From: a virus
Lineage: Duplodnaviria > Heunggongvirae > Uroviricota > Caudoviricetes
DNA length: 44,934 bases
Strand: one strand, 5' to 3'
Virus record (IMG/VR): IMGVR_UViG_3300045988_006673
Span: 1 to 44,934 of that record
The notes below the pieces were generated by a model. The model was not told the origin of the DNA. It saw nothing but the letters and a program-made list of their open reading frames with translations, and searched no databases. Positions 1,128-23,457 of this stretch are shown piece after piece. Made by a program: the position numbers and the translations under genes. Numbering within the stretch: the stretch's first letter is position 1; every line of letters starts with the position of its first letter.

Positions 1128-1156
1128 TTGCGCACCCCAATATAATAGGGTACTAT
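1128..1156 (+). promoter_or_regulatory. Class I promoter-like element P1: TTGCGC-N17-TACTAT with conserved spacer ACCCCAATATAATAGGG
   Basis: Sigma70-like -35/-10 at 17-bp spacing, about 30 bp upstream of the 1185 start; near-identical copies at 10837, 12992 and (minus strand) 21657 and 23429. Confidence 0.5.
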
Positions 1157-1184
1157 TCACCTGTAACCTACTGAGGAAACAATT

Positions 1185-1511
1185 ATGCGTAAATTAGTAT
1201 TAGCTCTGGGGTTTATGTCTTTTGCCGCTTTTGGGTCCCCGTGCGAACAGGTATTTAGTGAATCTGTTCTTATGACTTCTGGTGTGCTTGAGAAAGCCGA
1301 CCCTACTATTGTAAAGGCGTTCAAGGACTCTACAGTTCGCGAGTGTGAGGCCGCCGTGGAGGTTGGTAAATCGGGCCTACCCCCGCAAGCCGTAACCTAC
1401 ACAGTGATACGTTCGGTAGAGAAAAACGGAGATGCTTTCTATAGCCTACTGACAGCCACCCGTCTGCAAATGGTAATGACAGGGTGGGCGATGGGCGCAG
1501 AAAGTAAATAG
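1185..1511 (+). CDS. Small secreted protein (Sec signal peptide MRKLVLALGFMSFAAFG), function unknown
   Basis: ATG preceded by GAGGAAAC RBS; hydrophobic N-terminal signal; first gene of plus-strand cassette inside the tail module. Confidence 0.5.
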   Translation: MRKLVLALGFMSFAAFGSPCEQVFSESVLMTSGVLEKADPTIVKAFKDSTVRECEAAVEVGKSGLPPQAVTYTVIRSVEKNGDAFYSLLTATRLQMVMTGWAMGAESK

Positions 1512-1576
1512 TTGCCTTTATTTAAAGGAATCCACTGTGGTTAAATAGGACAAATCCTAAACACGAGGAAGTAAGC

Positions 1577-2707
1577 ATGGCCCAGAAGAAAATAACCGAC
1601 GAGCAGTTACAGGAAGAATTGAACGCCGGGATGAAGAATATCGATATAGCTCGTAAATACGGCATCTCCGACCGCGTTATTCGTATCCGTAAAGCGAAGC
1701 TGGCTAAGAAAGGTGTAGGCCACGGGCGTGACGTCAGTCACCTTGTACCGGACGGCTACAAGATTAAAGGCACGTCGTCGCTGGTTGATGAGTTCGGCAA
1801 CACTAAGTTGCAATGGGTTAAGACCGACACTGACGCCGAACGTCAGGTCGAGTTGATGAAAGCCGTAATTGAAGGCATGAAGTCGGAGATTACACCAGTT
1901 GCACCTGTTAAAGCGACTAGAGCCAAACGCGACGATAAACTACTCAATCTTTATACTGTGTCTGATTTCCATCTCGGTATGCTGGCATGGGCCGACGAGA
2001 GCGGAGATGACTGGGTCATGAAGATTGCAGAAGACCTGTTCTCTCGGTGGTTTGATGCCGCGTTTCAGAAAGCGCCTGACGCCGGAACAGGAGTTATTAA
2101 CCTGCTGGGCGACCTTGCGCACTTCGATAGTCTGGACGCCGTTACCCCCGCAAGTGGTCATGTTCTTGATGCGGACACGCGCTATCAGAAACTGGTACGC
2201 TACATGATTCGTATGGTACGTCGTGTTGTCGATATGGCCCTCGTTAAGCATAAAACTGTTCGCTTGCTTATCGTGCAAGGGAACCACGACGAAAGCGGAA
2301 TGATTTGGTTAGCTGAGATGTTCAGCACGCTATATGACAATGAGCCGCGTGTGTTCGTCGATACGTCTCCAGATGTTTACAAGATGGTGCAACACGGCAA
2401 AACGACATTGTTCTTTCACCACGGGCATAAAGCACGCTTCGACGCTATCGAACCGGTTATGATTGCCAAGTTCCGCAAAGCGTTCGGCGAGAGCGTTTAT
2501 AGCTACGCCCACGTGGGTCACCTGCACCACCAAAAGATTGTAGAAAGCCGTAACATGATTGTTGAGCAACACCGCACTCTCGCGGCTAAAGATGCATATG
2601 CCTCCCGCGGTGGGTGGATGTCGGGCCGCAGTGCAAATGTAATTACTTATAGCGCCGAATATGGCGAGGTCGCACGTTTAACTATTTCACCGGAGATGCT
2701 GGGATGA
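1577..2707 (+). CDS. Calcineurin-like metallophosphoesterase with N-terminal HTH-like region
   Basis: Motifs SDFH, GDLAHFD, GNHDE, HHGH typical of binuclear metallophosphoesterases; N-terminal 50 aa resembles a DNA-binding HTH; RBS CGAGGAAG. Confidence 0.6.
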   Translation: MAQKKITDEQLQEELNAGMKNIDIARKYGISDRVIRIRKAKLAKKGVGHGRDVSHLVPDGYKIKGTSSLVDEFGNTKLQWVKTDTDAERQVELMKAVIEGMKSEITPVAPVKATRAKRDDKLLNLYTVSDFHLGMLAWADESGDDWVMKIAEDLFSRWFDAAFQKAPDAGTGVINLLGDLAHFDSLDAVTPASGHVLDADTRYQKLVRYMIRMVRRVVDMALVKHKTVRLLIVQGNHDESGMIWLAEMFSTLYDNEPRVFVDTSPDVYKMVQHGKTTLFFHHGHKARFDAIEPVMIAKFRKAFGESVYSYAHVGHLHHQKIVESRNMIVEQHRTLAAKDAYASRGGWMSGRSANVITYSAEYGEVARLTISPEMLG

Positions 2708-3192
2708 AAGATATTGTGATTTTCGATTTAGATGGAACACTGGCGGATGGTACTCATCGTTTACATCTGCTGCCGAAAGATAACTACGGCGAAACCTGGG
2801 CGTGGAAGCCTTTTAACATGGCCTGTAAAGATGATGCGCCGATATATGACAACATTCACTTGTGCAACACACTGTGGCATACAGGGATGATCGTAATCAT
2901 CCTTACTGGGCGCAGTGATGATGCTGAGGATGAGACTCGTAAATGGTTGCAAGAAAATAACGTTAAGTTTGACACGCTGATAATGCGCAGCAAACACGAC
3001 AACAGAAAAGACATCGTAATTAAAGAAGAGGTGTTGCGTGCTATCGGGCTGGAGAGAATATTGTGTGCATTCGACGACTCGCCCGTGGTAATAAAGCATT
3101 TCCGCGGCCTCGGTATAACCACGCACGCGGTTACTGAATACGACTGTAACGGGAACTCTACACACTTAAAATCACACGGGAGTGATAAATAA
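2704..3192 (+). CDS. HAD-family phosphatase resembling the 3'-phosphatase domain of T4 polynucleotide kinase
   Basis: IVIFDLDGTLA (DxDGT nucleophile motif), TGR, RKDIVIKEE and DDSPVV blocks line up with remembered T4 Pnk C-terminal domain; start overlaps upstream stop (ATGA). Confidence 0.65.
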   Translation: MKDIVIFDLDGTLADGTHRLHLLPKDNYGETWAWKPFNMACKDDAPIYDNIHLCNTLWHTGMIVIILTGRSDDAEDETRKWLQENNVKFDTLIMRSKHDNRKDIVIKEEVLRAIGLERILCAFDDSPVVIKHFRGLGITTHAVTEYDCNGNSTHLKSHGSDK

Positions 3193-3746
3193 TGGCTAAG
3201 GTAATTATTCTTAATGGCCCGGCGGGCTGCGGGAAAGACACACTTGCTATGGCGCTGGTAGAAAGGGGCTTTGCAAAGGGCGCCGCCAGTTTCAAGAATC
3301 CAATGTTCAATATTGCTATGGCTGCGTTAGGTCCGGATGCTTACCACGAGTTTCTCGACGGCTACGACGACCGGGCCCGGAAAGAAAAGCCAGAGGGTTT
3401 CCTTAATGGGTTGTCTCGGCGTCAGTTCATGATCGCCATTTCTGAGCAATTCATTAAACCGGTATTCGGTGACGATTATTTCGGTAAGTATCTTGCCGGA
3501 AGATTGCCCGACGGCAACGAAGTTTTTGTAGTGTCCGACGGGGGATTCGCCAGTGAAGTTGCCCCTATCGTTGCCGTCGGGCATGACGTGCGAATCGTTC
3601 GCCTTCATCGTGACGGCTATACGTTTGAGGGGGACAGCCGTGGTTATCTGTATGGCGTTGATGGTGTAAAAGATTACGACACCTACATCATACCGGGTGA
3701 CGTTAAATCGAACGTTATAGACATTGCTTTAAAATTAGGTTTGTAA
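3192..3746 (+). CDS. P-loop nucleotide kinase, most similar to T4 gp1 deoxynucleoside monophosphate kinase
   Basis: Walker A GPAGCGKDT; blocks FKNPMFNIAMAALG and SRRQFMIAISEQF resemble gp1 substrate-binding regions; TAATG overlap with upstream gene. Confidence 0.6.
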   Translation: MAKVIILNGPAGCGKDTLAMALVERGFAKGAASFKNPMFNIAMAALGPDAYHEFLDGYDDRARKEKPEGFLNGLSRRQFMIAISEQFIKPVFGDDYFGKYLAGRLPDGNEVFVVSDGGFASEVAPIVAVGHDVRIVRLHRDGYTFEGDSRGYLYGVDGVKDYDTYIIPGDVKSNVIDIALKLGL

Positions 3747-3754
3747 GAAAAAAA

Positions 3755-3780
3755 AAGGCCCCGAAAGGGGCCTTAGTTTT
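3755..3780. terminator. Bidirectional rho-independent terminator (AAGGCCCC-GAAA-GGGGCCTT flanked by A and T runs)
   Basis: Perfect 8-bp GC stem with GAAA loop between convergent genes ending at 3746 (+) and 3779 (-). Confidence 0.7.
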
Positions 3781-4945
3781 ATGCGTAGCTAATACGCTGT
3801 ATTACAATAGAAGATTGATATTGATTGCCTGTGGACTGTCCTTCTATGCTCTGAGTGATTGACTCTGGCCCCCCAATCTCTGGTGTAACCGCCGTAAGTT
3901 CGGCACGTTTCAGGCTGAAAGACATAGCCCCGTTTACCCCCGCCAGAATAGAGTTAATCTCTACCTGCTGTTCGTTGATAAACTTCTGAATCATCGCCAT
4001 GTCGTACAGCTTGCCAGAGATGGAGAAGGTGTTAGCCGCGCGGCTACGCTCCACAAACGCAACGTTAGTGTTGCCGAGTTCGAACTGTGCGGACGCGCTG
4101 TTATCGTTGGTAATGGTCAAACTGTCGCAACGCAACGGCGTAGAGCCGTCAAACACGGAAACGTCAACCGAGGAGAATGGCTCGTCACCAAACGTAACAG
4201 ATGAGAAGTTGGAACCGGTCGGCGGCGTGGTGAGAATCTCCTGACTGCGACCGATGAATGGGAAGCTGCCAGTTACCATCGCGTTAACAGCCTGTTCGAT
4301 GGTAAACCCAGAAACTTCCACGCCTTTGGTTAACGTGTACGCGTCAGTGCCGCCGCACTGGCCTTTGTACCAGGTAAGGATAGAGAACGTCTTACACGTA
4401 TTACCGGTTTCCAGCGTGTCGCCAGTTTTAGCCTTACTAGTTTTTGTCTCGGCGGTCAGGGTGTGTTGGATGCCCGCACCAGTAACAACCGTAGCCGTTA
4501 CTGCAGTAACAATAAATGGTTTTGCGTTATCGCCTGTTAAATCGGTAAACGCAATCAGGTCGCCTACCCCAACTCCGTCAGTGATAAAGCTGCCGGTGGC
4601 ACGGGTAAAGGTCTTGCCTGCAGGCGCGACGGTAATTGATAGCCCGGTCAGAGAACTACCGGATTGCCATGTAGAGCCTAAAGCACCCGCCAGCCAGTCG
4701 TCCTGGCTTTTCGAGCTAAGCTCAATAGCGTATTCTCCGCTAACCTGCTTGTTACCGGTGCGGATTGACGTAGTTTCACGGCTGCCGTCCAGTTCGTTGG
4801 AGGTCAGCGTGTCGCGGGTAATGGCAGGAACGCCACCTGTGTTACGCAATGGCGCCCAGACCGGGTTAGTCGGTGTTACGCCAGGGGTAGTTTCTGCCAC
4901 ATAGAATTGCGCAGTATTCGCGCCCTTAAAAGGAGTTGTAGCCAT
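3779..4945 (-). CDS. Major tail (tube) protein, putative, possibly with C-terminal Ig-like extension
   Basis: Position immediately upstream (in transcription) of the chaperone and tape measure genes; ATG at 4945 with AAGAGG RBS; Thr/Gly/Ser-rich. Confidence 0.55.
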   Translation of the reverse strand: MATTPFKGANTAQFYVAETTPGVTPTNPVWAPLRNTGGVPAITRDTLTSNELDGSRETTSIRTGNKQVSGEYAIELSSKSQDDWLAGALGSTWQSGSSLTGLSITVAPAGKTFTRATGSFITDGVGVGDLIAFTDLTGDNAKPFIVTAVTATVVTGAGIQHTLTAETKTSKAKTGDTLETGNTCKTFSILTWYKGQCGGTDAYTLTKGVEVSGFTIEQAVNAMVTGSFPFIGRSQEILTTPPTGSNFSSVTFGDEPFSSVDVSVFDGSTPLRCDSLTITNDNSASAQFELGNTNVAFVERSRAANTFSISGKLYDMAMIQKFINEQQVEINSILAGVNGAMSFSLKRAELTAVTPEIGGPESITQSIEGQSTGNQYQSSIVIQRISYA

Positions 4946-4947
4946 AT

Positions 4948-5364
4948 TCACAGCCTCTTGGTGAATGCAATAAAGTTAATTGACAATGGTCGTTTGGCCC
5001 ATCCGTTTTCTACAATCAGCGGCCCCAGGCTAACCGATTGAACCTCGGCGCAGATGTCGTTACGAGAAAATGACTTACCTGCTTTGAATGCCGTGTTAAG
5101 TAAGTCTGCCATTTTATTGATTGGCGCGCTACCTTTCACCGATGCGTAGTTAATGTCGACCTGATAAACACCAGCGCGTTGTTCCGTGAAGAACAAATCT
5201 GCTTGCTCGGTATCCGCCAGTAACATGTAACTTGCCAGATATGGCGTATCGGTTGACGTCGGCGCGTCGATGTTTTCAAGCGCGACCTTGATGCCGTTGG
5301 CGGTTCCGAAGGCTACCAGCGGAACATCGAACGCTTTTGTTAAGTCCTCAAAGTAGCCCATCAT
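4948..5364 (-). CDS. Tail terminator / tail completion protein, putative
   Basis: 138-aa ORF immediately before major tail gene in operon order. Confidence 0.4.
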   Translation of the reverse strand: MMGYFEDLTKAFDVPLVAFGTANGIKVALENIDAPTSTDTPYLASYMLLADTEQADLFFTEQRAGVYQVDINYASVKGSAPINKMADLLNTAFKAGKSFSRNDICAEVQSVSLGPLIVENGWAKRPLSINFIAFTKRL

Positions 5365-5756
5365 TTCACCTTGTTGGCTTCTTCGTTAATGAGTTGCTGG
5401 AAGCGAGACACGTTAGTCCTGACCATACCTTGTGGCGCCTGTTGCGACCAACCGTACTCCAGCCGTTGGGCATACGGCAGATTATTAGTAAGCGTAAACT
5501 CGTGCCAGTCTGCGGCTTTCAGTACGAAACTTGTAGCGTTTCCGATTGCTATGTTTCCTGATTTATCTGTAGCATCCGCAACCCCTGAAGCAGGAGTACC
5601 GCCAGACGCCATCCAGTTCATACGAAAGCGACCAGTATCTACCGGACTCTCCTTTATGATAGCGGAAAACAGCTTAATAGACACCTGGCGCATCACCTTC
5701 TCAGGGTTCTTCTTCGCCTTTTCCACGAACTTAGAGACGTCAAGCGCGAAACTCAT
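5361..5756 (-). CDS. Neck / tail attachment protein (HK97 gp10-like), putative
   Basis: Size and position; RFRMNW and LEYGW motifs reminiscent of HK97 gp10 family. Confidence 0.4.
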   Translation of the reverse strand: MSFALDVSKFVEKAKKNPEKVMRQVSIKLFSAIIKESPVDTGRFRMNWMASGGTPASGVADATDKSGNIAIGNATSFVLKAADWHEFTLTNNLPYAQRLEYGWSQQAPQGMVRTNVSRFQQLINEEANKVK

Positions 5757-6166
5757 TTTCTCACCTGAATAAAGTAGGCCACGACATCATCGTTAACCAT
5801 CTTCTTCTCGATAGCTACGACCGACCATTGCTCGCCGCCGAATTGCACCTTGTCTTCCATCTTCGGAACGACGCTGCAATCCGCTTTAACAATCATGTCG
5901 CCAGCCTGAATCGTCGTACCGTTCACCAGTCCCGCGTTTACCGGAACCGGAACGGACTTCAACGGCAACACTTCATCTGCAGACCAGACGTACTCACCGA
6001 GAACTTCATCCCACACTTTCGAGCCAACGCGGACGAGAGATAACGTGCTGCCGAATTTGGTTAGCAGGCGCGTTCCAACGCCTTGCATACGCTTACTGAA
6101 AGCGGTGCTCATCAGGCGGCCTCCAGTCTCGAGATAACCAGTAATGCCGACGGTGCTGTGCCCCAT
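5753..6166 (-). CDS. Head closure / head-tail adaptor protein, putative
   Basis: 137-aa ORF in connector region; start uncertain (overlaps upstream ORF by 55 nt). Confidence 0.4.
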   Translation of the reverse strand: MGHSTVGITGYLETGGRLMSTAFSKRMQGVGTRLLTKFGSTLSLVRVGSKVWDEVLGEYVWSADEVLPLKSVPVPVNAGLVNGTTIQAGDMIVKADCSVVPKMEDKVQFGGEQWSVVAIEKKMVNDDVVAYFIQVRK

Positions 6167-6726
6167 GCGGTTACGGTAGCTGCTTGCGGGTATACGCCGC
6201 CGTAGTTGCTTCCGGCGCTATCCCGCATAATCTGAACGGCAAACGTCTGGCCTGCTGCAGGGTTAATAACGACGCGGGATTCAATCGGGATTGTTATATC
6301 GGCGCTGACTAGTTTTGTAGCGGCGGGGGACCCGTACTGAGAACCGTTCAGAAGAATGCGCGATAACATGATAGATGTCCCGCTAGCGCCCGTGCGCCCC
6401 GCCTGCAACTTGATGCGAACGGCGTAGTTACCCGCAGTGTTGAACGTAACAAGCCCTGCGGCATTAATCATTACCGGGTCCGACGCGATACCCTGCGCGG
6501 AGCCGAAAGTTAACTGCAACGCCGTATCTACTGCGGAAGGCGTTTGTGTTACGGTAGACGCAGCACGGAGAACTTCAACCTCTTTAACACCCGGAGTGGC
6601 GTAAATAGGTGAGTCCGCCATCTGTGTCATTACTTCGCGTAACTTCTCGGGTGTGATAAGCCCGGTGGTGTTATCGGGAAGGTTCGCTCCGATAAGGGTA
6701 AACATCTCTGTTTTAGTCTTCGCCAT
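6112..6726 (-). CDS. Virion structural protein of the head-tail joining region, function unknown
   Basis: 204-aa ORF between connector and head closure genes; translationally coupled. Confidence 0.35.
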   Translation of the reverse strand: MAKTKTEMFTLIGANLPDNTTGLITPEKLREVMTQMADSPIYATPGVKEVEVLRAASTVTQTPSAVDTALQLTFGSAQGIASDPVMINAAGLVTFNTAGNYAVRIKLQAGRTGASGTSIMLSRILLNGSQYGSPAATKLVSADITIPIESRVVINPAAGQTFAVQIMRDSAGSNYGGVYPQAATVTAWGTAPSALLVISRLEAA

Positions 6727-6728
6727 TT

Positions 6729-7241
6729 TTAACCCCGGTACACGTTAAACGAGAAGCCATTGTTAAGACCACCACACAGTAACGGGCGTAAGGCGTCGTC
6801 AGCAGCGGTAATGGCAGTTGTAGCTCCACTGCTGCCGTTGTTGAAGTACGTCACTGTCACAGCACCCTCAACACGCTCAGTCTGCACAGAACGACCGTCT
6901 GAGTTAGCCCGCACCTCAGTACCGGCACCATATGTAGCGGCGGCGATTACCTGCGCAAGAATAACCTGCTTCGGAATGGCGTTGTTAGCCGCCGGGAAGC
7001 CGTTTAACGTAACACCGGTGCGCGGGTACGCCAGAGACTGTTCAGCGGATACGCGACGCCCACACATCTGCGGTTCCGCGAGCCCGACATATGTAGCGCC
7101 ATTGCGCAGGGCTACTTCTGCAGCGGTATCGTCGGTGGGCAACTCCAGACCGTAATTAGCCGCTAACGCGCGGGCGTCAGCCAGACTAATGTAGCTGTCG
7201 GCATTCGGGACGATTGCCCCAGTTTCCACGATTAGCGGCAT
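6729..7241 (-). CDS. Head-tail connector protein (gp6-like), putative
   Basis: 170 aa; N-terminal YISLADARALAANYG pattern typical of gp6-like connector proteins; position after capsid genes. Confidence 0.45.
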   Translation of the reverse strand: MPLIVETGAIVPNADSYISLADARALAANYGLELPTDDTAAEVALRNGATYVGLAEPQMCGRRVSAEQSLAYPRTGVTLNGFPAANNAIPKQVILAQVIAAATYGAGTEVRANSDGRSVQTERVEGAVTVTYFNNGSSGATTAITAADDALRPLLCGGLNNGFSFNVYRG

Positions 7242-7244
7242 AAA

Positions 7245-7424
7245 TTATTCCTCTGACTTACGGCGACGACGCTTAGTACCACCGCCGTTGTTGTGCGCTT
7301 CTTCATTGTCTGGTTGAGTCGCAACCAGTTCATCCGCCTCTACCACACCGCGAACAGGCATCACCTGACCGTCAACAATATCAACGTGGGTGTACTTTTC
7401 GCGGATTACATAATTATCTGCCAT
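7245..7424 (-). CDS. Small hypothetical protein (59 aa) with basic C-terminus GGGTKRRRRK
   Basis: ATG at 7424 preceded by AAGGAAAGG RBS; not in ORF track (<60 aa). Confidence 0.35.
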   Translation of the reverse strand: MADNYVIREKYTHVDIVDGQVMPVRGVVEADELVATQPDNEEAHNNGGGTKRRRRKSEE

Positions 7425-7440
7425 GACCTTTCCTTATTAC

Positions 7441-7456
7441 GGCCCCGAAGGGCCGT
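7441..7456. terminator. GC hairpin GGCCC-CGAA-GGGCC (intra-operon attenuator/terminator)
   Basis: Palindromic stem-loop between Ig-like gene end (7461) and downstream small ORF. Confidence 0.4.
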
Positions 7457-7460
7457 TGTA

Positions 7461-10768: not shown

Positions 10769-10784
10769 AACTATTCGAATAGTT
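10769..10784. repeat. Perfect 16-bp palindrome AACTATTCGAATAGTT
   Basis: Exact inverted repeat; half-site GAATAGT matches the core shared by the promoter elements. Confidence 0.6.
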
Positions 10785-10836
10785 TATTCCAACATTTACA
10801 ATTCAGTGGAATAACCGGAATAGCTAAACAAATAGT

Positions 10837-10865
10837 TTGCACACCCCAATATAATAGGGTACTAT
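10837..10865 (+). promoter_or_regulatory. Class I promoter-like element P2: TTGCAC-N17-TACTAT, spacer ACCCCAATATAATAGGG
   Basis: Identical spacer to P1; about 30 bp upstream of 10894 start with GAGGAG RBS. Confidence 0.5.
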
Positions 10866-10893
10866 TCATTACATCGAAACGAGGAGATGAAAA

Positions 10894-11415
10894 ATGGTTA
10901 CTACAGTAATTACTTTCCCTGCGTATGTAGGGGCAAAAATCTGCAGGGCTAAAAATGATGTGCGCTACTATTTGAACGCTTTTTACATAGACCCTGAAGG
11001 ATTGATAGTGTCTACGGACGGGCATAGATTGTTCTGCGACAATGTGAAAACAAACGTCGGAACGGGAGTTCTAATAGACATCAAAGGTAGGGAGCCTTCT
11101 AAATTTAACTACGCGGAGGTAGACCACGGCAACGGTAGTGTTTCTTTCTATGACGATAGTAGTGCGCTTATATGCACACTTCCGATCGGTATTGTAGACG
11201 GGAGATTTCCTTACTGGAGACGTGTGGCCAGCATTACGCCGGGTTCAGTTGATAGCATAGGGTTCTCTCTGCGCTATTTGGCGGACGCGTACAAGATTTC
11301 TAAGGCATACAAAAATGAAATTGCCCGTTTCGATTTCCAGGACCAAACAAACGGGTGCAAAATATCATTTTCGAACACTGCATTTATGGTGTTAATGCCG
11401 GCGCGATTTAAATAA
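10894..11415 (+). CDS. Truncated DnaN-like protein (homolog of bacterial beta sliding clamp domain II plus a C-terminal segment)
   Basis: NDVRYYLN...STDGHRL, VDGRFPYWRRV, IGFSLRYL and C-terminal VLMPARFK match remembered conserved blocks of E. coli DnaN (QDVRYYLNG...TDGHRLA, VDGRFPDYRRV, IGFNVSYVL, VVMPMRL); only 173 aa versus about 366. Confidence 0.6.
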   Translation: MVTTVITFPAYVGAKICRAKNDVRYYLNAFYIDPEGLIVSTDGHRLFCDNVKTNVGTGVLIDIKGREPSKFNYAEVDHGNGSVSFYDDSSALICTLPIGIVDGRFPYWRRVASITPGSVDSIGFSLRYLADAYKISKAYKNEIARFDFQDQTNGCKISFSNTAFMVLMPARFK

Positions 11416-11421
11416 AACTAA

Positions 11422-11441
11422 GGCCCCGAAAGGGGCCCTTT
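11422..11441. terminator. Bidirectional terminator GGCCCC-GAAA-GGGGCC with flanking A and T runs
   Basis: Same hairpin as at 3755..3780; between convergent genes ending 11415 (+) and 11443 (-). Confidence 0.65.
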
Positions 11442-12991: not shown

Positions 12992-13020
12992 TTGCAGACA
13001 CCAATATAATAGTGTACTAT
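12992..13020 (+). promoter_or_regulatory. Class I promoter-like element P3: TTGCAG-N17-TACTAT, spacer ACACCAATATAATAGTG
   Basis: Third plus-strand copy; 28 bp upstream of small ORF at 13048. Confidence 0.45.
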
Positions 13021-13047
13021 TCAGTTAACTTAAACAGGAGATGAAAA

Positions 13048-13227
13048 ATGAAAAATTACAAATTCTACGCGGTAGTAGACGATAAAGGGGTTGTTGGTAT
13101 TTCTAACGAAAAGTATAGAACTTTGAAAGCTATCTTCACAGATTTGTCTTGTGCTGAGCGAGTGCTGGAGAGGAACAAAAACATGCCGCTAAGAATAGAG
13201 GTTGTAGAGATAATTAAGCCCCTGTAA
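13048..13227 (+). CDS. Small hypothetical protein (59 aa), between head morphogenesis and portal genes
   Basis: ATG with AGGAG RBS, own promoter and terminator; not in ORF track (<60 aa). Confidence 0.4.
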   Translation: MKNYKFYAVVDDKGVVGISNEKYRTLKAIFTDLSCAERVLERNKNMPLRIEVVEIIKPL

Positions 13228-13237
13228 GGGGCCTTTC
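13217..13237. terminator. Hairpin GCCCC-TGTAA-GGGGC followed by CTTTCTC
   Basis: Stem-loop spanning the stop codon of 13048..13227; adjacent to portal gene end (13238). Confidence 0.45.
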
Positions 13238-16573: not shown

Positions 16574-16604
16574 AGACGCGCCCTACGCGTCTAAATGGAT
16601 TATA
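16574..16604 (-). promoter_or_regulatory. Late-operon leader: consensus TATAAT (16604..16599, minus strand) followed by 7-bp inverted repeat AGACGCG-N5-CGCGTCT (16574..16592)
   Basis: Perfect -10 hexamer with poor -35 upstream of the terminase genes; palindrome in the 5' leader. Confidence 0.35.
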
Positions 16605-16631
16605 TAAGGGGATTGGGCGGGATGTACAGAA

Positions 16632-16651
16632 AAGCCCTCCGTAGAGGGCTT
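16632..16651 (-). terminator. Rho-independent terminator AAGCCCTC-CGTA-GAGGGCTT followed by TTTTCTGT on the minus strand
   Basis: 8-bp stem and T-run after the last early gene (16666) and before the late operon. Confidence 0.6.
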
Positions 16652-16941: not shown

Positions 16942-16970
16942 ACTATACTAGCAGGCTATTCACGCGTCAA
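16942..16970 (-). promoter_or_regulatory. Class II promoter-like element (minus strand): TTGACG-N17-TATAGT, spacer contains TGAATAGC
   Basis: Near-consensus sigma70 hexamers at 17-bp spacing upstream of 16896 start. Confidence 0.45.
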
Positions 16971-17074: not shown

Positions 17075-17380
17075 TTAATATCCGCATTCCCCGCTCTCCT
17101 TTCGCGTACTACTGGTTAATAACTTATCCTGCAAAATCATAACAGCATCAGCCATGATTTGTACGTGCCACAAATCTTTATCAGGGTACGGCAGTTTGTT
17201 AGGGTCGGACGACGATACACAGGTTGTTATCTTGGACCGCATAATGTCTATGAGAGTCAATAATTGCTTTTCATCACCACATTGAAGCACTAAGCTGACA
17301 AGTGTTTCGTATTCAGCGTTCTTTTCATCAACCGGGCTTTGTTTAATACCACAACATCTGCAAGGTTTCATCTCACTCAT
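17075..17380 (-). CDS. Hypothetical Cys-rich protein (101 aa)
   Basis: ORF in the early leftward region, overlapping stop/start with upstream gene. Confidence 0.4.
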   Translation of the reverse strand: MSEMKPCRCCGIKQSPVDEKNAEYETLVSLVLQCGDEKQLLTLIDIMRSKITTCVSSSDPNKLPYPDKDLWHVQIMADAVMILQDKLLTSSTRKESGECGY

Positions 17381-17637
17381 TCCCTGCTCTCCCCTCGTGC
17401 GATGCGTTGCTCAGTTTTGGTGATACCCCGGCGCGTGAATAACACCGGGCTAGTCTTAACGTGCGTCATCAGACGGTTGTTATAAATTACGTGGCGCTCG
17501 CAATCAACGTCTTTGCTGTACTTCGCAATCGTCATTTCGTTGATGCCGGTTTGACGGCATGTCTCGGCCATCGTGCCGTATTCTTTAATCAGGTTCGGAA
17601 TGCTGGTAATCATCCTACGAAATTCCTCGTTGTCCAC
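17377..17637 (-). CDS. Hypothetical protein (86 aa), possible HTH
   Basis: ORF; segment ETCRQTGINEMTIAKY resembles a helix-turn-helix. Confidence 0.4.
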   Translation of the reverse strand: MDNEEFRRMITSIPNLIKEYGTMAETCRQTGINEMTIAKYSKDVDCERHVIYNNRLMTHVKTSPVLFTRRGITKTEQRIARGESRE

Positions 17638-17782
17638 ATCGCGTTTGGATATTTGTTATCACGGTCCTGTACTACGGCAATCATGTTTCCACGTTGCACC
17701 AGGCAGAAGTGCCGCTGCTGCTCGCCGTTGTAGCGACGCCAGATTGCTTCTTCGATTGCTGCGTTGATGTCACTGAACATGC

Positions 17783-17974
17783 TCACCCCACTATCTCATC
17801 ACCAAGCCACGCCGTTTCTCGTATATCGTCAACCACACAAGCGGCGTGCTCACGGCTAATTGCAAAAATGTAGAAGCTGAACTTCTTCCCGTCGGCGTCG
17901 ATGTGGTTAACCGAGTAAGGCTTCCACAGAACGCCATCGATAACTACTGGCTCAGGCGCTTTCATCGGAGTCAC
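17783..17974 (-). CDS. Hypothetical protein (63 aa)
   Basis: ORF in compact early gene array. Confidence 0.35.
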   Translation of the reverse strand: MTPMKAPEPVVIDGVLWKPYSVNHIDADGKKFSFYIFAISREHAACVVDDIRETAWLGDEIVG

Positions 17975-18276
17975 TCTACGCTAATGCGGCGTATCTGGTA
18001 TGTAGCTCCGAGTTCATTTCGCAAGAGAAACTCTTTATACTCTTGTGCGTCAGATTCTTTCAAAAACGCTCTCGCTATAGTCTGTACGCCGTTTTTGGTG
18101 CGGGATACTATGCTTACACCGTTTTCATTCTTCATGCGCTCAAGCAACAACTTAAACGCCTCCAGTTGAAACTCACCGTTAATAGACAGTTGCCCACCTA
18201 ACGTCTGTTTCTCGGACTCAAGCACCAGAATACGGCGCTCGAGTGATGCGATTGTGATTTTAGGCATTGGTATCAC
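17971..18276 (-). CDS. Hypothetical protein (101 aa)
   Basis: ORF in compact early gene array, overlapping stop/start with neighbours. Confidence 0.4.
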   Translation of the reverse strand: MIPMPKITIASLERRILVLESEKQTLGGQLSINGEFQLEAFKLLLERMKNENGVSIVSRTKNGVQTIARAFLKESDAQEYKEFLLRNELGATYQIRRISVE

Positions 18277-18445
18277 CTTTGTTCAGGTTGAAGCGGTTAA
18301 TCAGTTCACGGCGTGTCTCATATAGCGACTCAACCATTTGCTCGGCCACCGCGATTTTAGTATTCAGGACGTGCATCACGTGGCTAATGTCCACACCGCT
18401 GTCAACAGCCTCAACCATCATCTTTTCATATTCGCGGTCAGTCAT
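18260..18445 (-). CDS. Hypothetical protein (61 aa)
   Basis: ORF in compact early gene array. Confidence 0.35.
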   Translation of the reverse strand: MTDREYEKMMVEAVDSGVDISHVMHVLNTKIAVAEQMVESLYETRRELINRFNLNKGDTNA

Positions 18446-18741
18446 GCTTTACGCTCTCCCACATGCGATTGAGATACTTGTTCTTGTCCGGGCCAGGGAA
18501 ACTGTTACGTTTCATCAGTTCCTCGCGTGTCGGGAACGGGGTGTGGTTGACTTTACGGCCTACTCGTAACGGCTGGCTTGCTGGACCTTGTTCGCTCATT
18601 TCTTCTCTCCTGCATAAGCTGCTTTAAGTGTCTGCATCGCGGCGAACCAGAACGCGGCCGCGGGAATGCTGTTGCTCAGGTTACTAACGGCGATGCGGGC
18701 CATCAGTTGTGCGTCTTTGAATGCTTCGATATCTGTGATTT

Positions 18742-18975
18742 TCATTGGTCAAATTCCTTAATCAGTTCGTCTACCGCGTCGTCCGTATCCGCGTCTAATC
18801 CTCCGCAGTTAGAAAGTACTTCTACGTAATCACTGTCATTCATACCTATCGCCGAGAAGAACTCTACAATAGTAAGTTTTACAAGTTCACGCTGCTCTGC
18901 ATCTGTGCATGAATACAAAGAGCAATTAACCGCGTCTCGTAGTTTTAGTTTAAGGGTGCTTTTATCTGTAACCAT
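18742..18975 (-). CDS. Hypothetical acidic protein (77 aa)
   Basis: ORF immediately downstream of minus-strand promoter at 19009..19037. Confidence 0.4.
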   Translation of the reverse strand: MVTDKSTLKLKLRDAVNCSLYSCTDAEQRELVKLTIVEFFSAIGMNDSDYVEVLSNCGGLDADTDDAVDELIKEFDQ

Positions 18976-19008
18976 CTTCTCTACTCCGTTCTCGTTGTCG
19001 ATGGAGTA

Positions 19009-19037
19009 AATATAATAGGGTCTAAGGTAATAGTCAA
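19009..19037 (-). promoter_or_regulatory. Promoter-like element (minus strand): TTGACT-N17-TATATT
   Basis: Sigma70-like hexamers at 17-bp spacing; forward strand carries AATATAATAGGGT as in class I spacers. Confidence 0.4.
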
Positions 19038-19067
19038 CTAGTCATTGCAGAAAATAGATAAAAAAAA

Positions 19068-19092
19068 ATCCCGGCTGGGTCAGGGCCGGGAT
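19068..19092 (-). terminator. Strong rho-independent terminator (ATCCCGGC-N9-GCCGGGAT followed by T9 on the minus strand)
   Basis: 8-bp stem and nine-T run downstream of the endolysin gene. Confidence 0.75.
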
Positions 19093-19156
19093 AAAACTGG
19101 AGAGCAGAGGGATGGAGCAGGAGGTGATTTAAGTATCGTCGGATTAGTCTTGGGTG

Positions 19157-19645
19157 TCAACCTTTCACCGCGCGCCCAATAGCTTCTGCCTCCTGCCACG
19201 GCTTACCGTCGAACAGCGCCAGACGACCGGCTGTACGGCGACGCAGGCCGAGTAACGGTTTGCCGTTTTGGTTGATGAACAACGCCAGCTTAGCCCGCAG
19301 CGTCGCGATATCCCCCGAACGCAGCGCCTTGCCCGTGCCAGTAGTAGCTGCAATCACGCCAGCACCTGCGTTATAGACCAGGTCGCAAACAGCGTCGAAC
19401 TGGGCTTGTGTCAATGAATGGTGCGCTGCTGCGTCGACCGCAGCTACGGCCTTAGCCATATCGCGATTCAGTAACAGGAGGCCTTGTCCTGGCGTGATGG
19501 TCTTGCCTGGCGTTACGTCAGGCCCATAGTGACCGTAGCCTATAGTAAGGTACTTCTCGTTCGGTGTAGCGCGATACGCGGTTCCACGGAATCCCTCGAA
19601 CGCAGCGGTAAAATGCAATCCATTATCTGAAATGTTTCGAGACAC
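19157..19645 (-). CDS. Endolysin (lysozyme-like muramidase)
   Basis: N-terminal EGFRGTAYRATPNEKYLTIGYGH block typical of T4 e-type/GH24 lysozymes; follows holin genes. Confidence 0.75.
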   Translation of the reverse strand: MSRNISDNGLHFTAAFEGFRGTAYRATPNEKYLTIGYGHYGPDVTPGKTITPGQGLLLLNRDMAKAVAAVDAAAHHSLTQAQFDAVCDLVYNAGAGVIAATTGTGKALRSGDIATLRAKLALFINQNGKPLLGLRRRTAGRLALFDGKPWQEAEAIGRAVKG

Positions 19646-19895
19646 GCTTGTGCCCTCCGTATGATAGCCACGCCTGGCGAATCTGACGCAGCGCTACTAA
19701 TGTGATTAATGTCTCAGGCAGCGTTGGTGACATGCTGCCCTGTAACAGGTGGATACATCCGGCAGCGCAGACGATAGCTGTCAGGATATAGAGCACCCGG
19801 CCAAATAATCCGTCGTCCACGCCGGGATGGTACACATTAAACAGCGATGTGCCTCCGATTGCCAGCATACCGCCGAACCAGAATAACTCATTCAT
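19623..19895 (-). CDS. Holin/antiholin-like small membrane protein
   Basis: ATG at 19895 with GAGGAGG RBS; two or three predicted transmembrane segments; overlaps endolysin start. Confidence 0.5.
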   Translation of the reverse strand: MNELFWFGGMLAIGGTSLFNVYHPGVDDGLFGRVLYILTAIVCAAGCIHLLQGSMSPTLPETLITLVALRQIRQAWLSYGGHKRVSKHFR

Positions 19896-20196
19896 CCGGG
19901 CCTCCTCGACGTGCGATGTATTCTCCGGCGACGATACCGGAGAGGCGGGAATAGATGGGCATCCAGAGGACAGCGATGATAAATCCGAGGCCAGCGATTT
20001 CACGTTCGCCCGTGATGCCAAACCATTGAGCTGCGAGAGGTGCACCAAATACGGCGCAAGTGAAGCCAGTTGCAATAAAGCAGAATCCGTCGATGGGACC
20101 AGAAATAACGGACTTATGTTGCCTTAGTCCGATTACCCCTCCGGCTAGCGCGGCAGCGAGAAGCCACCCCGTCACTGTTTCAGTAAATTTATCCAA
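19888..20196 (-). CDS. Holin-like membrane protein (three hydrophobic segments), TTG start
   Basis: TTG start 8 nt after GGAGG RBS; three hydrophobic helices; immediately upstream of second holin-like gene and lysozyme. Confidence 0.5.
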   Translation of the reverse strand: MDKFTETVTGWLLAAALAGGVIGLRQHKSVISGPIDGFCFIATGFTCAVFGAPLAAQWFGITGEREIAGLGFIIAVLWMPIYSRLSGIVAGEYIARRGGPDE

Positions 20197-20271
20197 GATG
20201 AATCCTCCAGGTGCGTATTAAGTATGCAGTAACTGGAGGATACCACGGGTAGGAATTATCCTAATAACGGT

Positions 20272-20565
20272 TTATTTATGACGCCAGATGTATTGTCGTC
20301 TCTGCGGTTTCGTCGGAATATCATCGTACCCCAGCGATTTCCAGTAATTAAATAACCGGTTAGCGATTGCCGCGTGTTTCTGTGTCTTGAACTCACCAAG
20401 ATTCACAGCCTTTCCGTTCTGGAACCCGCAGGCGCGGACAGCTTTGCGTCTGGCCTGAATCTCTGGGTACAGCGCGTTACCGCGACGCTTGTGTATGCGC
20501 GTCTTCGCTCTCGGTGACAGCGGCGCAAGGCCGCTTCGTTTCAGGATGTCAGTTGCAAGAGACAT
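20272..20565 (-). CDS. AP2-domain DNA-binding protein (stand-alone), putative
   Basis: NGKAVNLGEFKTQKHAAIANRLFNYW resembles the AP2 DNA-binding domain seen in phage HNH-AP2 endonucleases; start chosen at ATG 20565. Confidence 0.45.
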   Translation of the reverse strand: MSLATDILKRSGLAPLSPRAKTRIHKRRGNALYPEIQARRKAVRACGFQNGKAVNLGEFKTQKHAAIANRLFNYWKSLGYDDIPTKPQRRQYIWRHK

Positions 20566-20861
20566 CACTCCACCCCTTCCACATGCGTAATTGACCCACA
20601 GTTCGCGCACTCGATGTAATCCGGGAACTGGTCTTTGTATTTTTGTAACTCGGCTTCCGCTTTTTCTGCCCGCGCTAAAGAGTCGAAAGCGTCATTGGGT
20701 ATCCGCGCACGCCTCGCCCTGAGTTCATTGAACTTACGCTCAAGTTCCTCGTAGTCTTCATAACCCACCCAGTCACCTTTGTCGCTCTTCACCATCTCGT
20801 AATACGGGTGGTACGGACTAGCGTCCACATCTTTAAGCTCATATCTCTGTACCATAATCAC
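20565..20861 (-). CDS. Hypothetical protein (98 aa)
   Basis: ORF, overlapping stop/start with neighbours. Confidence 0.4.
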   Translation of the reverse strand: MIMVQRYELKDVDASPYHPYYEMVKSDKGDWVGYEDYEELERKFNELRARRARIPNDAFDSLARAEKAEAELQKYKDQFPDYIECANCGSITHVEGVE

Positions 20862-21085
20862 TTCTCCTGTTTACCAAGTCGCTTAGGTGAGCAGATAGCG
20901 CGTACCTCTGAATCGATGGGCTTGTCACCCTGAAACAGGAAGTGCGCGTTCTCTGCGGCGCGTGCCGCAGACTGGCACGCCTCCATCGAGTAAAACGTTT
21001 CTGATGCCGCGAGTTGCATCTGACCAGCGGACATCACCCAGATAAAAAGGATGCTGGTCATTTCTTTAATCCACATTTTTTGCAC
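20858..21085 (-). CDS. Small protein with N-terminal hydrophobic segment (75 aa)
   Basis: ORF; hydrophobic N-terminus MTSILFIWVMSAG. Confidence 0.35.
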   Translation of the reverse strand: MQKMWIKEMTSILFIWVMSAGQMQLAASETFYSMEACQSAARAAENAHFLFQGDKPIDSEVRAICSPKRLGKQEK

Positions 21086-21507
21086 ATCATCGAAGCGCCT
21101 TTATCGTAAAAGTACCAATCATGCTCACACCCCTGCGCGTCTTCTTTTCGGCAACCGGATTGCTCGGGGCCAAGCGCACCTTTGCGTATAAGTTTGTAAG
21201 CCTCGACGTCACCCGTAGCCTTAGCCAACGCGATATGCAAATCCTTAAGCTGCGCCGAAGCATCACGTAACTGATTCTTAAGTGACTGCACATCGTGCGC
21301 CAGGTCTTCGCACTGTTTCTTGTACGGGTTGTGTTCCAGGCCAATGTAAGCATCAATTATGGCGTTTTCCTCGTCGGTATAGATACCGCGACCCACGATA
21401 CTACGGTCTATACTCCACCGTTTAATTTCACCCATCACATCTACGACTGGTAGCTGCCGCCGTAGTTGGTCAATCAAGTACTCGAATACTTCGTTTTTAG
21501 TGCTCAT
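21058..21507 (-). CDS. Hypothetical coiled-coil protein with C-terminal Cys cluster (start uncertain)
   Basis: ORF; start chosen at ATG 21507 overlapping the upstream small ORF; C-terminal CEHDW...CKKCG. Confidence 0.4.
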   Translation of the reverse strand: MSTKNEVFEYLIDQLRRQLPVVDVMGEIKRWSIDRSIVGRGIYTDEENAIIDAYIGLEHNPYKKQCEDLAHDVQSLKNQLRDASAQLKDLHIALAKATGDVEAYKLIRKGALGPEQSGCRKEDAQGCEHDWYFYDKGASMMCKKCGLKK

Positions 21508-21656
21508 ATTCTTCACTGACTCCGTTATAGACGCCGTTGTAATCTCCGTCGCAGATGAACGGGTAGAGCATATCTTCGTACTCGTCCTGCAACTCACCCA
21601 AAGTTACTTCGCTATAATCTTTCATCTTCTGTCTCTCCTCTCGTTTGTGTAAATGA

Positions 21657-21685
21657 ATAGTAGCCTATTCTATCATAGTGTGCAA
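21657..21685 (-). promoter_or_regulatory. Class I promoter-like element P4 (minus strand): TTGCAC-N17-TACTAT
   Basis: Reverse complement TTGCACACTATGATAGAATAGGCTACTATTCA; upstream of the gene block starting near 21628. Confidence 0.45.
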
Positions 21686-21948
21686 GTACATTTTATTGGG
21701 GCCCGACGCACCCACTCACGCACCAACCACCCCGCAAAAAGAAACGCCGGGTTTAAGTTTCAGGTTACGGACAATCACCGTCTCTACTGAATAGATTGAT
21801 TCATACCTCGAGTGCCCTCTTCCGTGGCCAAGTTTAACCATGCCTCCGGTTACTTCGGTTACTAACCTCTTCCTCCCATTGACCAGGACGACATCGCCCG
21901 GGCGCACATCAGGATGTTTAAGTTGAGCCAGTCGCTCTTCATATCTGG

Positions 21949-22221
21949 TTATTGTTGCATCTCCTGCAACGCGGAGAATGCAACAATAACTCCGTTCGCC
22001 TTTAGCCAGTGGTACACGAACACATCGCTCGGAGACGGCGCTCCAAGAATCCCGACGATATTTAGGTGGGACAGCAACCCTTCAATTTCTCGCATGGAAT
22101 AAATATCATGCGAACGACCACTATTCAGGGTTAGTGTTGCGTCACCGAAAGGAGTACCGTCGGTATGACCTACGCCTGTCATGTAGCCGCGTAAGAATTC
22201 TATCTTCTCTCTGTCTGTCAT
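21949..22221 (-). CDS. Hypothetical protein (90 aa), flanked by a 19-bp direct repeat
   Basis: ATG at 22221 with GGAG RBS; the 19-mer ATTGTTGCATCTCCTGCAA occurs at 21951..21969 and 22220..22238. Confidence 0.45.
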   Translation of the reverse strand: MTDREKIEFLRGYMTGVGHTDGTPFGDATLTLNSGRSHDIYSMREIEGLLSHLNIVGILGAPSPSDVFVYHWLKANGVIVAFSALQEMQQ

Positions 22222-22292
22222 TGTTGCATCTCCTGCAATAGTCGCTTCGATTGTTGCGTTTGGTGAAATAGAACAAAAATGAGAAAAATGAT

Positions 22293-22312
22293 ACGCTGCT
22301 GTGTAGCAGCGT
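22293..22312 (-). terminator. Rho-independent terminator ACGCTGCT-N4-AGCAGCGT followed by a T-rich tract on the minus strand
   Basis: 8-bp stem; ATCATTTTTCTCATTTTTG downstream on the minus strand; after gene 22346..22540. Confidence 0.55.
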
Positions 22313-22345
22313 AAGTCACTTAGTAAAATCCCAAACTATTGAACA

Positions 22346-22540
22346 TCACACTTCCGGCGGCTCAGGTAACGGCATCCAGTGGGTAACATCCTCACTACTG
22401 ATATTTGAGTTACGCGGCGCCCAACAATCCCAGAAACTGTCGCAATCCCACCACATCACCTCAACGTTAACCCCGTCCGAAACCAGCACCTCTTCAAATT
22501 CTTCTGGCGTCCTCTCACTACACTTAATCCACTCGCCCAT
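22346..22540 (-). CDS. DUF551-like small phage protein
   Basis: C-terminal W-MPLPEPP motif characteristic of a common small phage protein family. Confidence 0.45.
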   Translation of the reverse strand: MGEWIKCSERTPEEFEEVLVSDGVNVEVMWWDCDSFWDCWAPRNSNISSEDVTHWMPLPEPPEV

Positions 22541-22690
22541 AAATCACCCCTTATTCATCACAGCCTGCACACCAGCTTTCCACGCCCGCCACGCGAGACG
22601 CGTCTTAACGTTCAGGTACTCTTTCTTCGAACCCTTGTTAACCGGCAGACCCTCGACGACGGCCCACCGTTCGAATGCTTCTCTCATAAC

Positions 22691-22924
22691 TTAGTCCTCA
22701 CTTAATGCCTGAGCCGCGACCCGGATGATGGCGGATAAACACTGTGCGCAAGGCTCTTGCCTGAATCCGTTTTCTACAGCATATAGGGCGTGTTGGGCGT
22801 CCTGGAACAGCCATTCACCGTACGATGGAGTGGCTCCGCACCACGTTTCTATTTCATTCGTCGGCAATCTATCCCCGTCCCGATGGTCTACCTTGATTAT
22901 GTGTTTTCGCATACCTACCCCCAC
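22691..22924 (-). CDS. Hypothetical protein (77 aa)
   Basis: ORF in early leftward operon. Confidence 0.35.
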   Translation of the reverse strand: MGVGMRKHIIKVDHRDGDRLPTNEIETWCGATPSYGEWLFQDAQHALYAVENGFRQEPCAQCLSAIIRVAAQALSED

Positions 22925-22975
22925 AACACGTGCACCACATAAACGACGCTGACAATTAATAAAATAAACAGGTAA

Positions 22976-23215
22976 TTATTCACGGCAACCTCCCTCAGAG
23001 TCGTCGGCACGAGCATCATGATTCGATGCCGTTGTGTATATTTCCGCTTCGGCCTTAGTTACCGGGATTGTGTATCTCCCTGTCTTAATCCACCAGCCGC
23101 CGTTACAGGAATCCAGCACATCAAAAACATCACCGATATTTACGCCTATGCTTTCCAGAGTATCTTTAGCTGTTTCATAGGTAACGGTGTTATCTGTAAT
23201 TATGATTTGCATCAC
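22976..23215 (-). CDS. Hypothetical protein (79 aa)
   Basis: ORF in early leftward operon. Confidence 0.4.
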   Translation of the reverse strand: MMQIIITDNTVTYETAKDTLESIGVNIGDVFDVLDSCNGGWWIKTGRYTIPVTKAEAEIYTTASNHDARADDSEGGCRE

Positions 23216-23403
23216 TTCGCCCCTTTGAATTTAAAATTGTTGCCGATGAGTTTTAGCTCGTGTCCTCTGTACCAGATACCAAAAGACCAATACGGATTAG
23301 TAATAAGATACAGGTCCACGAGTCTCTTAGAAACGTGCCTAATTACCCCGACCCCGTTGCACTTTGTTTTCACCAACTGACCCTTCTTAAACATAACCCT
23401 CAC
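23212..23403 (-). CDS. Hypothetical protein (63 aa), first gene of the early leftward operon
   Basis: ORF starting about 25 bp downstream of promoter P5. Confidence 0.4.
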   Translation of the reverse strand: MRVMFKKGQLVKTKCNGVGVIRHVSKRLVDLYLITNPYWSFGIWYRGHELKLIGNNFKFKGAK

Positions 23404-23428
23404 TCCTCTGTCCCGTTTCGATAAGTGA

Positions 23429-23457
23429 ATAGTATCCTATTATGTTGGGGTGTGCAA
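23429..23457 (-). promoter_or_regulatory. Class I promoter-like element P5 (minus strand): TTGCAC-N17-TACTAT, spacer ACCCCAACATAATAGGA
   Basis: Reverse complement nearly identical to P1 and P2. Confidence 0.5.

Follow-up and report, generated by a model that had tools for sequence, protein, structure and literature searches.

Why should promoters scattered over a phage genome resemble one another well beyond the bases that RNA polymerase reads? The question is raised by a 44,934-nucleotide stretch of DNA (IMG/VR record IMGVR_UViG_3300045988_006673; hereafter the window), in which an earlier note, made from the letters alone, had described a family of five near-identical 30-bp promoter elements of the form TTGCAC-spacer-TACTAT. 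The window is the near-complete genome of a virulent Escherichia coli phage of the genus Kagunavirus. We propose that the five repeats are promoters of the host sigma70 type with an embedded dyad, and that this dyad is most likely the predicted operator of a 71-residue phage protein resembling Cro of phage 434, a reading to which we assign a probability of roughly 55%.

The first 25 kb of the window align with Kagunavirus phages at about 90% identity over up to 83% of their length, with Escherichia phage EF2-1 as the best match and 498 related records, mostly of Salmonella and Escherichia siphoviruses. By the EF2-1 annotation, a leftward arm leads from small early genes to the lysis, terminase, head and tail genes, and a rightward arm holds the genes for a primase-helicase, a single-stranded DNA (ssDNA)-binding-like protein, a DNA polymerase and a helicase. 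The same layout places three short plus-strand insertions within the leftward structural arm.

Five sigma70-type promoters with a common dyad

All five copies were recovered where the note had placed them (P1 to P5; Table 1), as matches to TTGC-N19-TACTATTCA, for which 0.06 would be expected in shuffled sequence. The full 29-mer occurs four times at three or fewer mismatches, with none expected. Every copy contains the inverted repeat AATAG-N4-CTATT, overlapping the TACTAT hexamer. The statement that almost the entire spacer is shared holds for four copies, which have 0-2 spacer mismatches, but not for P4, in which 6 of the 17 positions differ and which agrees with the others only in the palindrome and in the AC that follows the -35. 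What is constrained is the palindrome of 14-16 bp, not the whole spacer.

The promoter anatomy and its positions stand as described. The five copies all read TTGC(A/G)N-17-TACTAT, with the TTGnnn -35, the TAnnnT -10 and the 17 ± 1 bp spacing of a sigma70 promoter, and each is followed on the same strand, after 25-40 bp, by a Shine-Dalgarno sequence and an ATG. The class A hexamers, TTGCAC and TACTAT, match only 7 of the 12 consensus positions, among them all six of the best-conserved ones (TTG and TA...T). At P1 to P3 the genes served are antiparallel to their neighbours and would need a promoter of their own. Conservation that extends past the polymerase contacts supports a second recognition event, as had been argued; the suggestion of a modified sigma interaction found no support. 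We also considered the TTGC of the class A -35 as a special MotA-like box and rejected it, given that the Jerseyvirus SE2 has TTGACG or TTGCAT at the equivalent promoters.

The motif itself has been listed before. The genome papers on VB_EcoS-Golestan (PMC7203180, Table S4) and fBC-Eco01 (PMC9825357, Table S2) give the same 20-bp motif as PHIRE 'phage promoters', in seven copies per genome at equivalent positions; it reads TAATAGGGTACTATTCATTA, or tgAATAGTa-ccTATTat-T on the other strand (PMC7203180, PMC9825357). Both papers list the motif only, with no -35/-10 context, dyad, two orientations or candidate binder. In fBC-Eco01 it carries the label 'phage RNAP promoter' (PMC9825357), which would make a phage-encoded RNA polymerase its reader. 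That attribution is wrong, there being no such gene, and we give this explanation next to no weight: the annotations of EF2-1 and SE2 contain neither an RNA polymerase nor a sigma gene, the large open reading frames (ORFs) of the window are all otherwise assigned, the elements have the -35 and -10 hexamers of sigma70 promoters, 17 bp apart, and for most copies the published consensus lies on the strand opposite to the genes served (PMC9825357).

One dyad in two promoter architectures

Five proved to be an undercount. In the window, AATAG-N4-CTATT occurs eight times exactly and 12 times at one mismatch or fewer, against 1.05 expected, and a scan with a position weight matrix separated ten clear and two marginal sites from the background and found nothing else. 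All the clear sites lie in promoter-like intergenic DNA. Six promoter-like sites beyond the original five carry the palindrome (P6 and B1 to B5; Table 1), and at least ten promoters bear the predicted operator in two architectures, class A and class B, between which the shared core is inverted. The dyad consensus is (T/G)AATAG-N4-CTATT(A/C), 14-16 bp in length. These sites, their enrichment, their positions and the pattern of their conservation are observed directly.

The class B promoters B1 to B3 are near-consensus, TTGAC(A/G)-17-TATAGT, and drive the rightward replication genes; B1 to B4 match 10-11 of the 12 sigma70 consensus positions. At B5, a CTATT half-site abuts the -10. P6 lacks a -35, and the G-to-T change in its half-site creates an extended -10 (TGG-TACTAT); the site is conserved in 35 related loci. 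Only two sigma70-like promoters of the window are free of the palindrome. One lies directly upstream of the small terminase gene and is a candidate late promoter; SE2 has an equivalent site, at a conserved position. The other precedes the HTH_17, phrog_5169 and primase-helicase genes.

Table 1. Promoters, palindromes, candidate regulator genes and cassette terminators of the window.
Feature	Position	Strand	Description
P1	1128..1156	+	Class A, TTGCGC-17-TACTAT; palindrome 1144-1157; drives 1185-3746
P2	10837..10865	+	Class A; palindrome 10853-10866; drives 173-residue gene 10894-11415
P3	12992..13020	+	Class A; palindrome 13008-13021; drives 59-residue gene 13048-13227
P4	21657..21685	-	Class A, divergent upstream spacer; palindrome 21656-21669; drives 42-residue ORF 21625-21497 and leftward early genes
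P5	23429..23457	-	Class A; palindrome 23428-23441; drives 60-residue gene 23394-23212 and leftward early genes
P6/O1	26881..26894	-	Imperfect palindrome AATAT GGTA CTATT; contains -10 TACTAT (26887..26882); before 71-residue HTH gene
B1	26915..26943	+	Class B, TTGACA-17-TATAGT; palindrome 26925-26938 in spacer; drives 26975 onward
B2	29250..29278	+	Class B; palindrome 29260-29273; drives ssDNA-binding-like gene at 29333 and DNA polymerase gene
B3	32957..32985	+	Class B, TTGACG-17-TATAGT; palindrome 32967-32980
B4	16942..16970	-	Class B, TTGACG-17-TATAGT; one-mismatch palindrome AATAGCCTGCTAGT at 16960..16947; drives 76-residue ORF 16896-16666
B5	19009..19042	-	TTGACT-17-TATATT right after strong terminator; one-mismatch palindrome ACTAGTTGACTATT (19042..19029) overlaps -35
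Palindrome-free sigma70-like promoter	16599..16628	-	TGTACA-18-TATAAT; directly upstream of small terminase gene
Palindrome-free sigma70-like promoter	23828..23856	+	TTGATT-17-TATACT; before HTH_17, phrog_5169 and primase-helicase genes
HTH_3 (XRE/Cro-CI) gene	26635..26850	-	71 residues; Pfam HTH_3, 1.2e-12; proposed operator binder
HTH_17 (AlpA/excisionase-like) gene	23889..24059	+	56 residues, essentially HTH domain only; absent from Cornellviruses; rival binder
Bidirectional terminator	3755..3774		Closes P1 cassette
Bidirectional terminator	11420..11439		Closes P2 cassette
Bidirectional terminator	13216..13234		Closes P3 cassette

Read on the other strand, class A is TG-AATAG-TAcc-CTAT/TATATT; class B is TG-AATAG-TTAG-CTAT/TATAGT. 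The two amount to one asymmetric 20-bp core that occurs either way round with respect to the -35 and the gene, and the flanking asymmetry of the dyad (TG on one side, AT on the other) is inverted between the classes. With respect to the polymerase hexamers, the dyad contains the -10 (class A), lies in the spacer and ends at the -10 (class B) or covers the -35 (B5). In SE2 the right arm is itself the -10 (TTGCAT-N7-AATAGTGGCC/TATTAT), and across SE2 and the Cornellviruses either this arrangement is seen or the dyad lies downstream of the -10. Since the dyad recurs in further promoters, in the opposite orientation and in other registers, it is an independent module.

Class A could also be a promoter on both faces, firing on the opposite strand through TATATT/TATTAT and thereby restarting structural-gene transcription behind the bidirectional terminators of the cassettes. 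The reverse face of P1 (1167..1139; GTTACA-17-TATATT) matches sigma70 at 9 of 12 positions and points toward the tail chaperone and tape-measure genes, behind a strong minus-strand terminator (3774..3755), and the reverse hexamer is best kept in P1 to P3, the three cassettes within the structural arm. We nevertheless consider this improbable: P2 (CGATGT) and P3 (AAGTTA) have poor reverse -35 hexamers, relatives with another leader at P1 have lost theirs, and the dyad of the class B promoters would go unexplained. With a usable reverse -35 at P1 only, reverse-strand promoter activity was rejected as a general feature.

Conservation was read from about 36 related IMG/VR contigs, in which the arms of the dyad hardly change, whereas the 2-3 bases at its centre and the three that follow the -35 do. 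An ungapped alignment of the orthologous B1 sites was partly out of register upstream owing to a 1-bp spacer polymorphism, and B1 was therefore read outside that alignment: the gap from -35 to dyad is 4 or 5 nt (a 17- or 18-bp spacer), and the register from dyad to -10 is fixed. Among the paralogues, the -35 (TTGCGC, TTGCAC, TTGCAG, TTGACA, TTGACG, TTGACT or none) is more variable than the dyad arms. Arms that are kept while the centre, the flanks, the -35 and the register vary argue for a protein-binding dyad, and not for polymerase contacts or recent duplication alone.

The same pattern bears on an account without any dedicated factor, in which a promoter-leader cassette spread by common descent and recombination, as for T4 PeSL, with RNA polymerase alone selecting for promoter strength. 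P1, P2, P3 and P5 do share the non-palindromic stretch ACCCCAATAT and parts of their leader (TCAnTTAnCGAAACGAGGAG), and the promoters border genes that are hypervariable among close relatives. Yet the half-sites, besides outlasting the -35, persist in three genera in different registers and orientations, and the upstream arm of class B has no known polymerase contact. We regard this account as unlikely, although it is the strongest of the alternatives considered here.

A host transcription factor common to E. coli and Salmonella would suit the fact that phages with the same half-site infect both host genera. In IMG/VR, the dyad-bearing version of the element is confined to Kagunavirus-like contigs. 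A 66-bp stretch spanning it (10830-10895) had no match in 5,426 complete E. coli genomes by blastn, a search to which isolated 14-bp sites are undetectable, and among phages it matched only Kagunavirus/Jerseyvirus-type records, a restriction to one lineage that counts in favour of the phage-protein reading. The Salmonella-infecting Cornellviruses use a shifted half-site (see below), tracking the phage protein rather than the host, and we know of no enterobacterial regulator with a site of the AATAG-N4-CTATT type. A host factor therefore seems very improbable to us.

A Cro-like protein as the candidate binder

Three small proteins of the window are candidates for binding the dyad: the 71-residue HTH_3 protein, the 56-residue HTH_17 protein and a 77-residue phrog_5169 protein. 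The earlier note had named an XRE-type and an AlpA-like protein; the first is the best candidate and the second is less likely, relatives without HTH_17 still carrying the palindrome. The best solved relative of the HTH_3 protein is phage 434 Cro (E = 4.9e-7), which is also 71 residues long; the 434 and P22 repressors come next. The annotated Cro of a lambdoid Klebsiella phage shares 45% identity with the HTH_3 protein, and about 570 phage records hold a homologue. Neither EF2-1 nor SE2 has an annotated integrase or a CI-type repressor with a C-terminal domain, and the 71-residue protein is the sole HTH_3 regulator found.

The operators of 434 Cro are 14-bp dyads with a non-contacted centre. 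The sites described here resemble them: they are dyads within the 14-18 bp of Cro/CI-type operators, their arms are kept while centre and flanks vary, and every clear site overlaps the -10, the spacer or the -35. The divergent control region of the Cro-like gene itself holds two dyads, the imperfect O1 and the palindrome of B1, 44 bp apart centre to centre; P6/O1 is the promoter of this gene and its predicted operator. The recognition helix of the protein is invariant in 35 of 36 Kagunavirus loci, and orthologues are present in all three genera compared (Kagunavirus, Jerseyvirus and Cornellvirus).

Comparison of these genera helps to choose among the candidates. AATAG-N4-CTATT is enriched in the Jerseyvirus SE2 (seven sites against 1.1 expected) and not in the Cornellvirus FSL SP-031 (one against 1.0), and HTH_17 and phrog_5169 are absent from the Cornellviruses FSL SP-031 and St162 by tblastn. 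The Cornellviruses keep the Cro-like orthologue at 39-41% identity, with the helix TQSAISH in place of the SQGAINQ of the window. They also have about eight syntenic promoters with a dyad of the same geometry and shifted half-sites, TATTAG/TATTAC-N4-GTAATA/CTAATA (TATTAS-N4-STAATA), beside which the Kagunavirus dyad reads, for example, TGAATAGTTAGCTATTCA. The pattern TAWTAS-N4-STAWTA gives eight sites against 1.0 expected in FSL SP-031 and seven against 1.1 in the window. This dyad was found by reading the promoters, and the pattern was tested afterwards; in SE2, FSL SP-031 and St162, de novo counts of exact 5-mer dyads gave nothing beyond terminators, and counts at one mismatch were too noisy, with null maxima of 8-10. 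Because the Cornellviruses keep the dyad without HTH_17 and phrog_5169, the Cro-like protein is the sole candidate present wherever the dyad is.

A simple mode of action can be proposed. A dimer of the Cro-like protein would sit on the dyad and, since the dyad overlies the spacer, the -10 or the -35, would be expected to keep RNA polymerase off. Rising amounts of the protein would lower transcription from the early and middle promoters, P1 to P5 and the replication promoters B1 to B3 among them, with weaker repression of its own promoter, the P6 operator being imperfect. The candidate late promoter before the terminase, which has no operator, would stay active. All three elements of this scheme, binding to the dyad, the Cro-like protein as binder and a repressive rather than activating effect, are predictions from sequence.

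Several points weigh against this assignment. SE2 keeps the AATAG half-site even though its Cro-like orthologue is only 51% identical and has changes at 4 of 7 positions of the recognition helix. In the Cornellviruses the motif is rich in AT and -10-like, so that its enrichment may be partly compositional, and the half-site shift is partial, TAATAS being retained in 4 of 12 half-sites. With an operator at nearly every promoter, the order of events in time is speculative, and the Cro-like protein could modulate or activate rather than repress. Finally, the HTH_17 proteins of the window phage and SE2 are 88% identical, in keeping with their shared half-site, and within Kagunavirus and Jerseyvirus HTH_17 fits the role of binder at least as well.

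That last point opens an alternative in which the dyad is still an operator but is bound by HTH_17, or by the adjacent phrog_5169 protein, made from the operator-less 23828 promoter and acting on all dyad-bearing promoters. HTH_17 is confined to exactly the two genera with AATAG-N4-CTATT, and its own promoter is free of the dyad, as expected of a regulator that is expressed first. On the other side stand the Cornellviruses, which carry the same-geometry dyad at syntenic promoters with neither gene, and the placement of the sites: two copies flank the Cro-like gene and none the HTH_17 gene. Excisionase-type winged-helix proteins, moreover, usually recognize direct repeats or single sites and not perfect 5-N4-5 dyads. 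We judge this alternative unlikely, slightly more so than an origin without any factor.

A further role for HTH_17, with the element as a loading site for an AlpA/Q-type antiterminator, is tempting by position, the element lying between -35 and -10 with many terminators downstream. Pseudomonas aeruginosa AlpA is Q-like, has its HTH at residues 128-142 of a larger protein and needs a pause element (PMC9371919). The idea was rejected on size, HTH_17 having only 56 residues against the more than 140 of the Q-like P. aeruginosa AlpA with its exit-channel ring. The leaders, read by eye and with no formal scan, have no obvious TAnnnT pause element within +1 to +20.

Cassettes, wider model and known systems

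As the note had it, P1 to P3 serve plus-strand cassettes that are transcribed independently of the minus-strand structural arm around them, and a bidirectional terminator closes each. The P1 cassette encodes a 108-residue secreted or membrane protein, then DNA-repair exonuclease, polynucleotide kinase and dNMP-kinase-like proteins; the P2 cassette encodes a phrog_3007 protein, labelled RusA-like, whose gene is absent from EF2-1; the small P3 protein has no assigned function. Host takeover or anti-defence as their function is a guess. The bidirectional terminators at 3755-3774, 11420-11439 and 35958-35977 are near-identical (AAGGCCCC-NNNN-GGGGCCTT), so that the cassette ends, like the cassette promoters, form a repeated family.

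The first gene behind a given promoter differs among close relatives, with at least three genes seen at each of P1, P2 and P3. With their own promoter and terminator, their place between conserved late genes and their variable content, the P1 to P3 cassettes qualify as moron-like, hyperplastic loci with a conserved promoter-leader module at their border. The leftward early promoters behave alike. Among near-identical relatives the first gene of P4 has about 18 different N-termini, many with '...LGEL.D.YE...VCDGD', and that of P5 has a conserved MFKKGQL start followed by unrelated sequence, all behind promoters and leaders that are almost unchanged. This suggests recombination breakpoints in a module of promoter, leader and first codons, or a diversifying family of small proteins.

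If the Cro-like protein is the binder, the moron-type cassettes would be wired into its regulon. A wider model, which we hold only tentatively and rate well below the operator assignment itself, is that a single 434-Cro-like protein governs nearly all transcription of this strictly virulent siphovirus. The early-to-late switch would come from selective repression alone, with an operator, in either orientation and several registers, in all but two of about 13 sigma70 promoters, moron cassettes included; the terminase promoter would escape, no activator, sigma factor or antiterminator would be needed, and the operator module would double as an exchange border for hypervariable early genes.

The closest parallel is Cro with OR and OL of phage 434 (and of P22 and lambda), which shares the 71-residue HTH_3 protein, the 14-bp dyad with conserved outer 5 bp and sites over the promoter core. 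The Cro-like gene is likewise divergent from a rightward replication-gene promoter, with operators between. In contrast to 434 and lambda, the window phage is virulent and has predicted single operators over about 11 promoters genome-wide, in both orientations and several registers; its control region differs from a lambdoid immunity region in having two sites and no tripartite OR/OL. A Cro-type repressor acting on sigma70 promoters is a textbook mechanism; what is unusual is its proposed setting in a virulent phage, with single operators on nearly all promoters.

Other systems are similar in part. Like the morons of lambdoid and other siphoviruses, P1 to P3 head self-contained promoter-gene-terminator units, here set against the direction of the structural arm that contains them. 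Expression of classical morons is from the prophage and independent of lytic control, whereas P1 to P3 share the early promoter/operator module of a virulent phage. As with T4 PeSL, near-identical early promoters with their leaders flank hyperplastic regions in which close relatives have different small genes, but no associated stem-loop was seen here, and recombination at the elements is a possibility that the variable genes suggest. The stoperators of mycobacteriophage L5 (cluster A) are also many copies of one short repressor site across a genome. They are asymmetric sites of 13-14 bp that lie within transcription units, point in the direction of transcription and bind the lysogenic repressor, whereas those of the window are dyad-symmetric and lie on promoter cores in a virulent phage. 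Literature searches returned no transcriptome or 5'-end data for Guernseyvirinae, though they were too loose to exclude such data, and chance hits only for the motif strings.

Kagunaviruses and Jerseyviruses have been isolated widely, as phages for use against E. coli and Salmonella in therapy or biocontrol. For these phages, the promoter set and a testable single-regulator model would map the early, middle and late transcription units, explain the timing of the accessory cassettes inside the structural operon and provide compact promoter/operator parts with a candidate repressor for engineering. They would also correct the 'phage RNAP promoters' label in the literature.

Scans of the window for tRNA genes and for Rfam families found none. 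At 16576-16640 (-), immediately after a terminator, the late-promoter candidate is followed by a GC-rich hairpin, GACGCG-TAGG-GCGCGTC, which has no T tract and precedes the terminase start; it could be a regulatory leader for the late genes. In some relatives an extra dyad, AATAGTAACCTATT, adjoins the direct repeats CCTGTTACACC-CCTGTTACACC downstream of a 'tgtagcagcgta' terminator. Direct repeats of this kind are missing from the window, and in the relatives the arrangement might be an iteron-like or origin-like element. Upstream of P2, at 10769-10784, lies a perfect 16-bp everted dyad, AACTATTCGAATAGTT, with the same half-sites in swapped order, followed by GGAATAA, GGAATAG and AAATAGT repeats at 10808-10836; FSL SP-031 has similar GGAATAA repeats at the syntenic cassette (about 25390-25450). 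The everted dyad and repeats may be auxiliary half-sites, a decoy array or the site of another protein.

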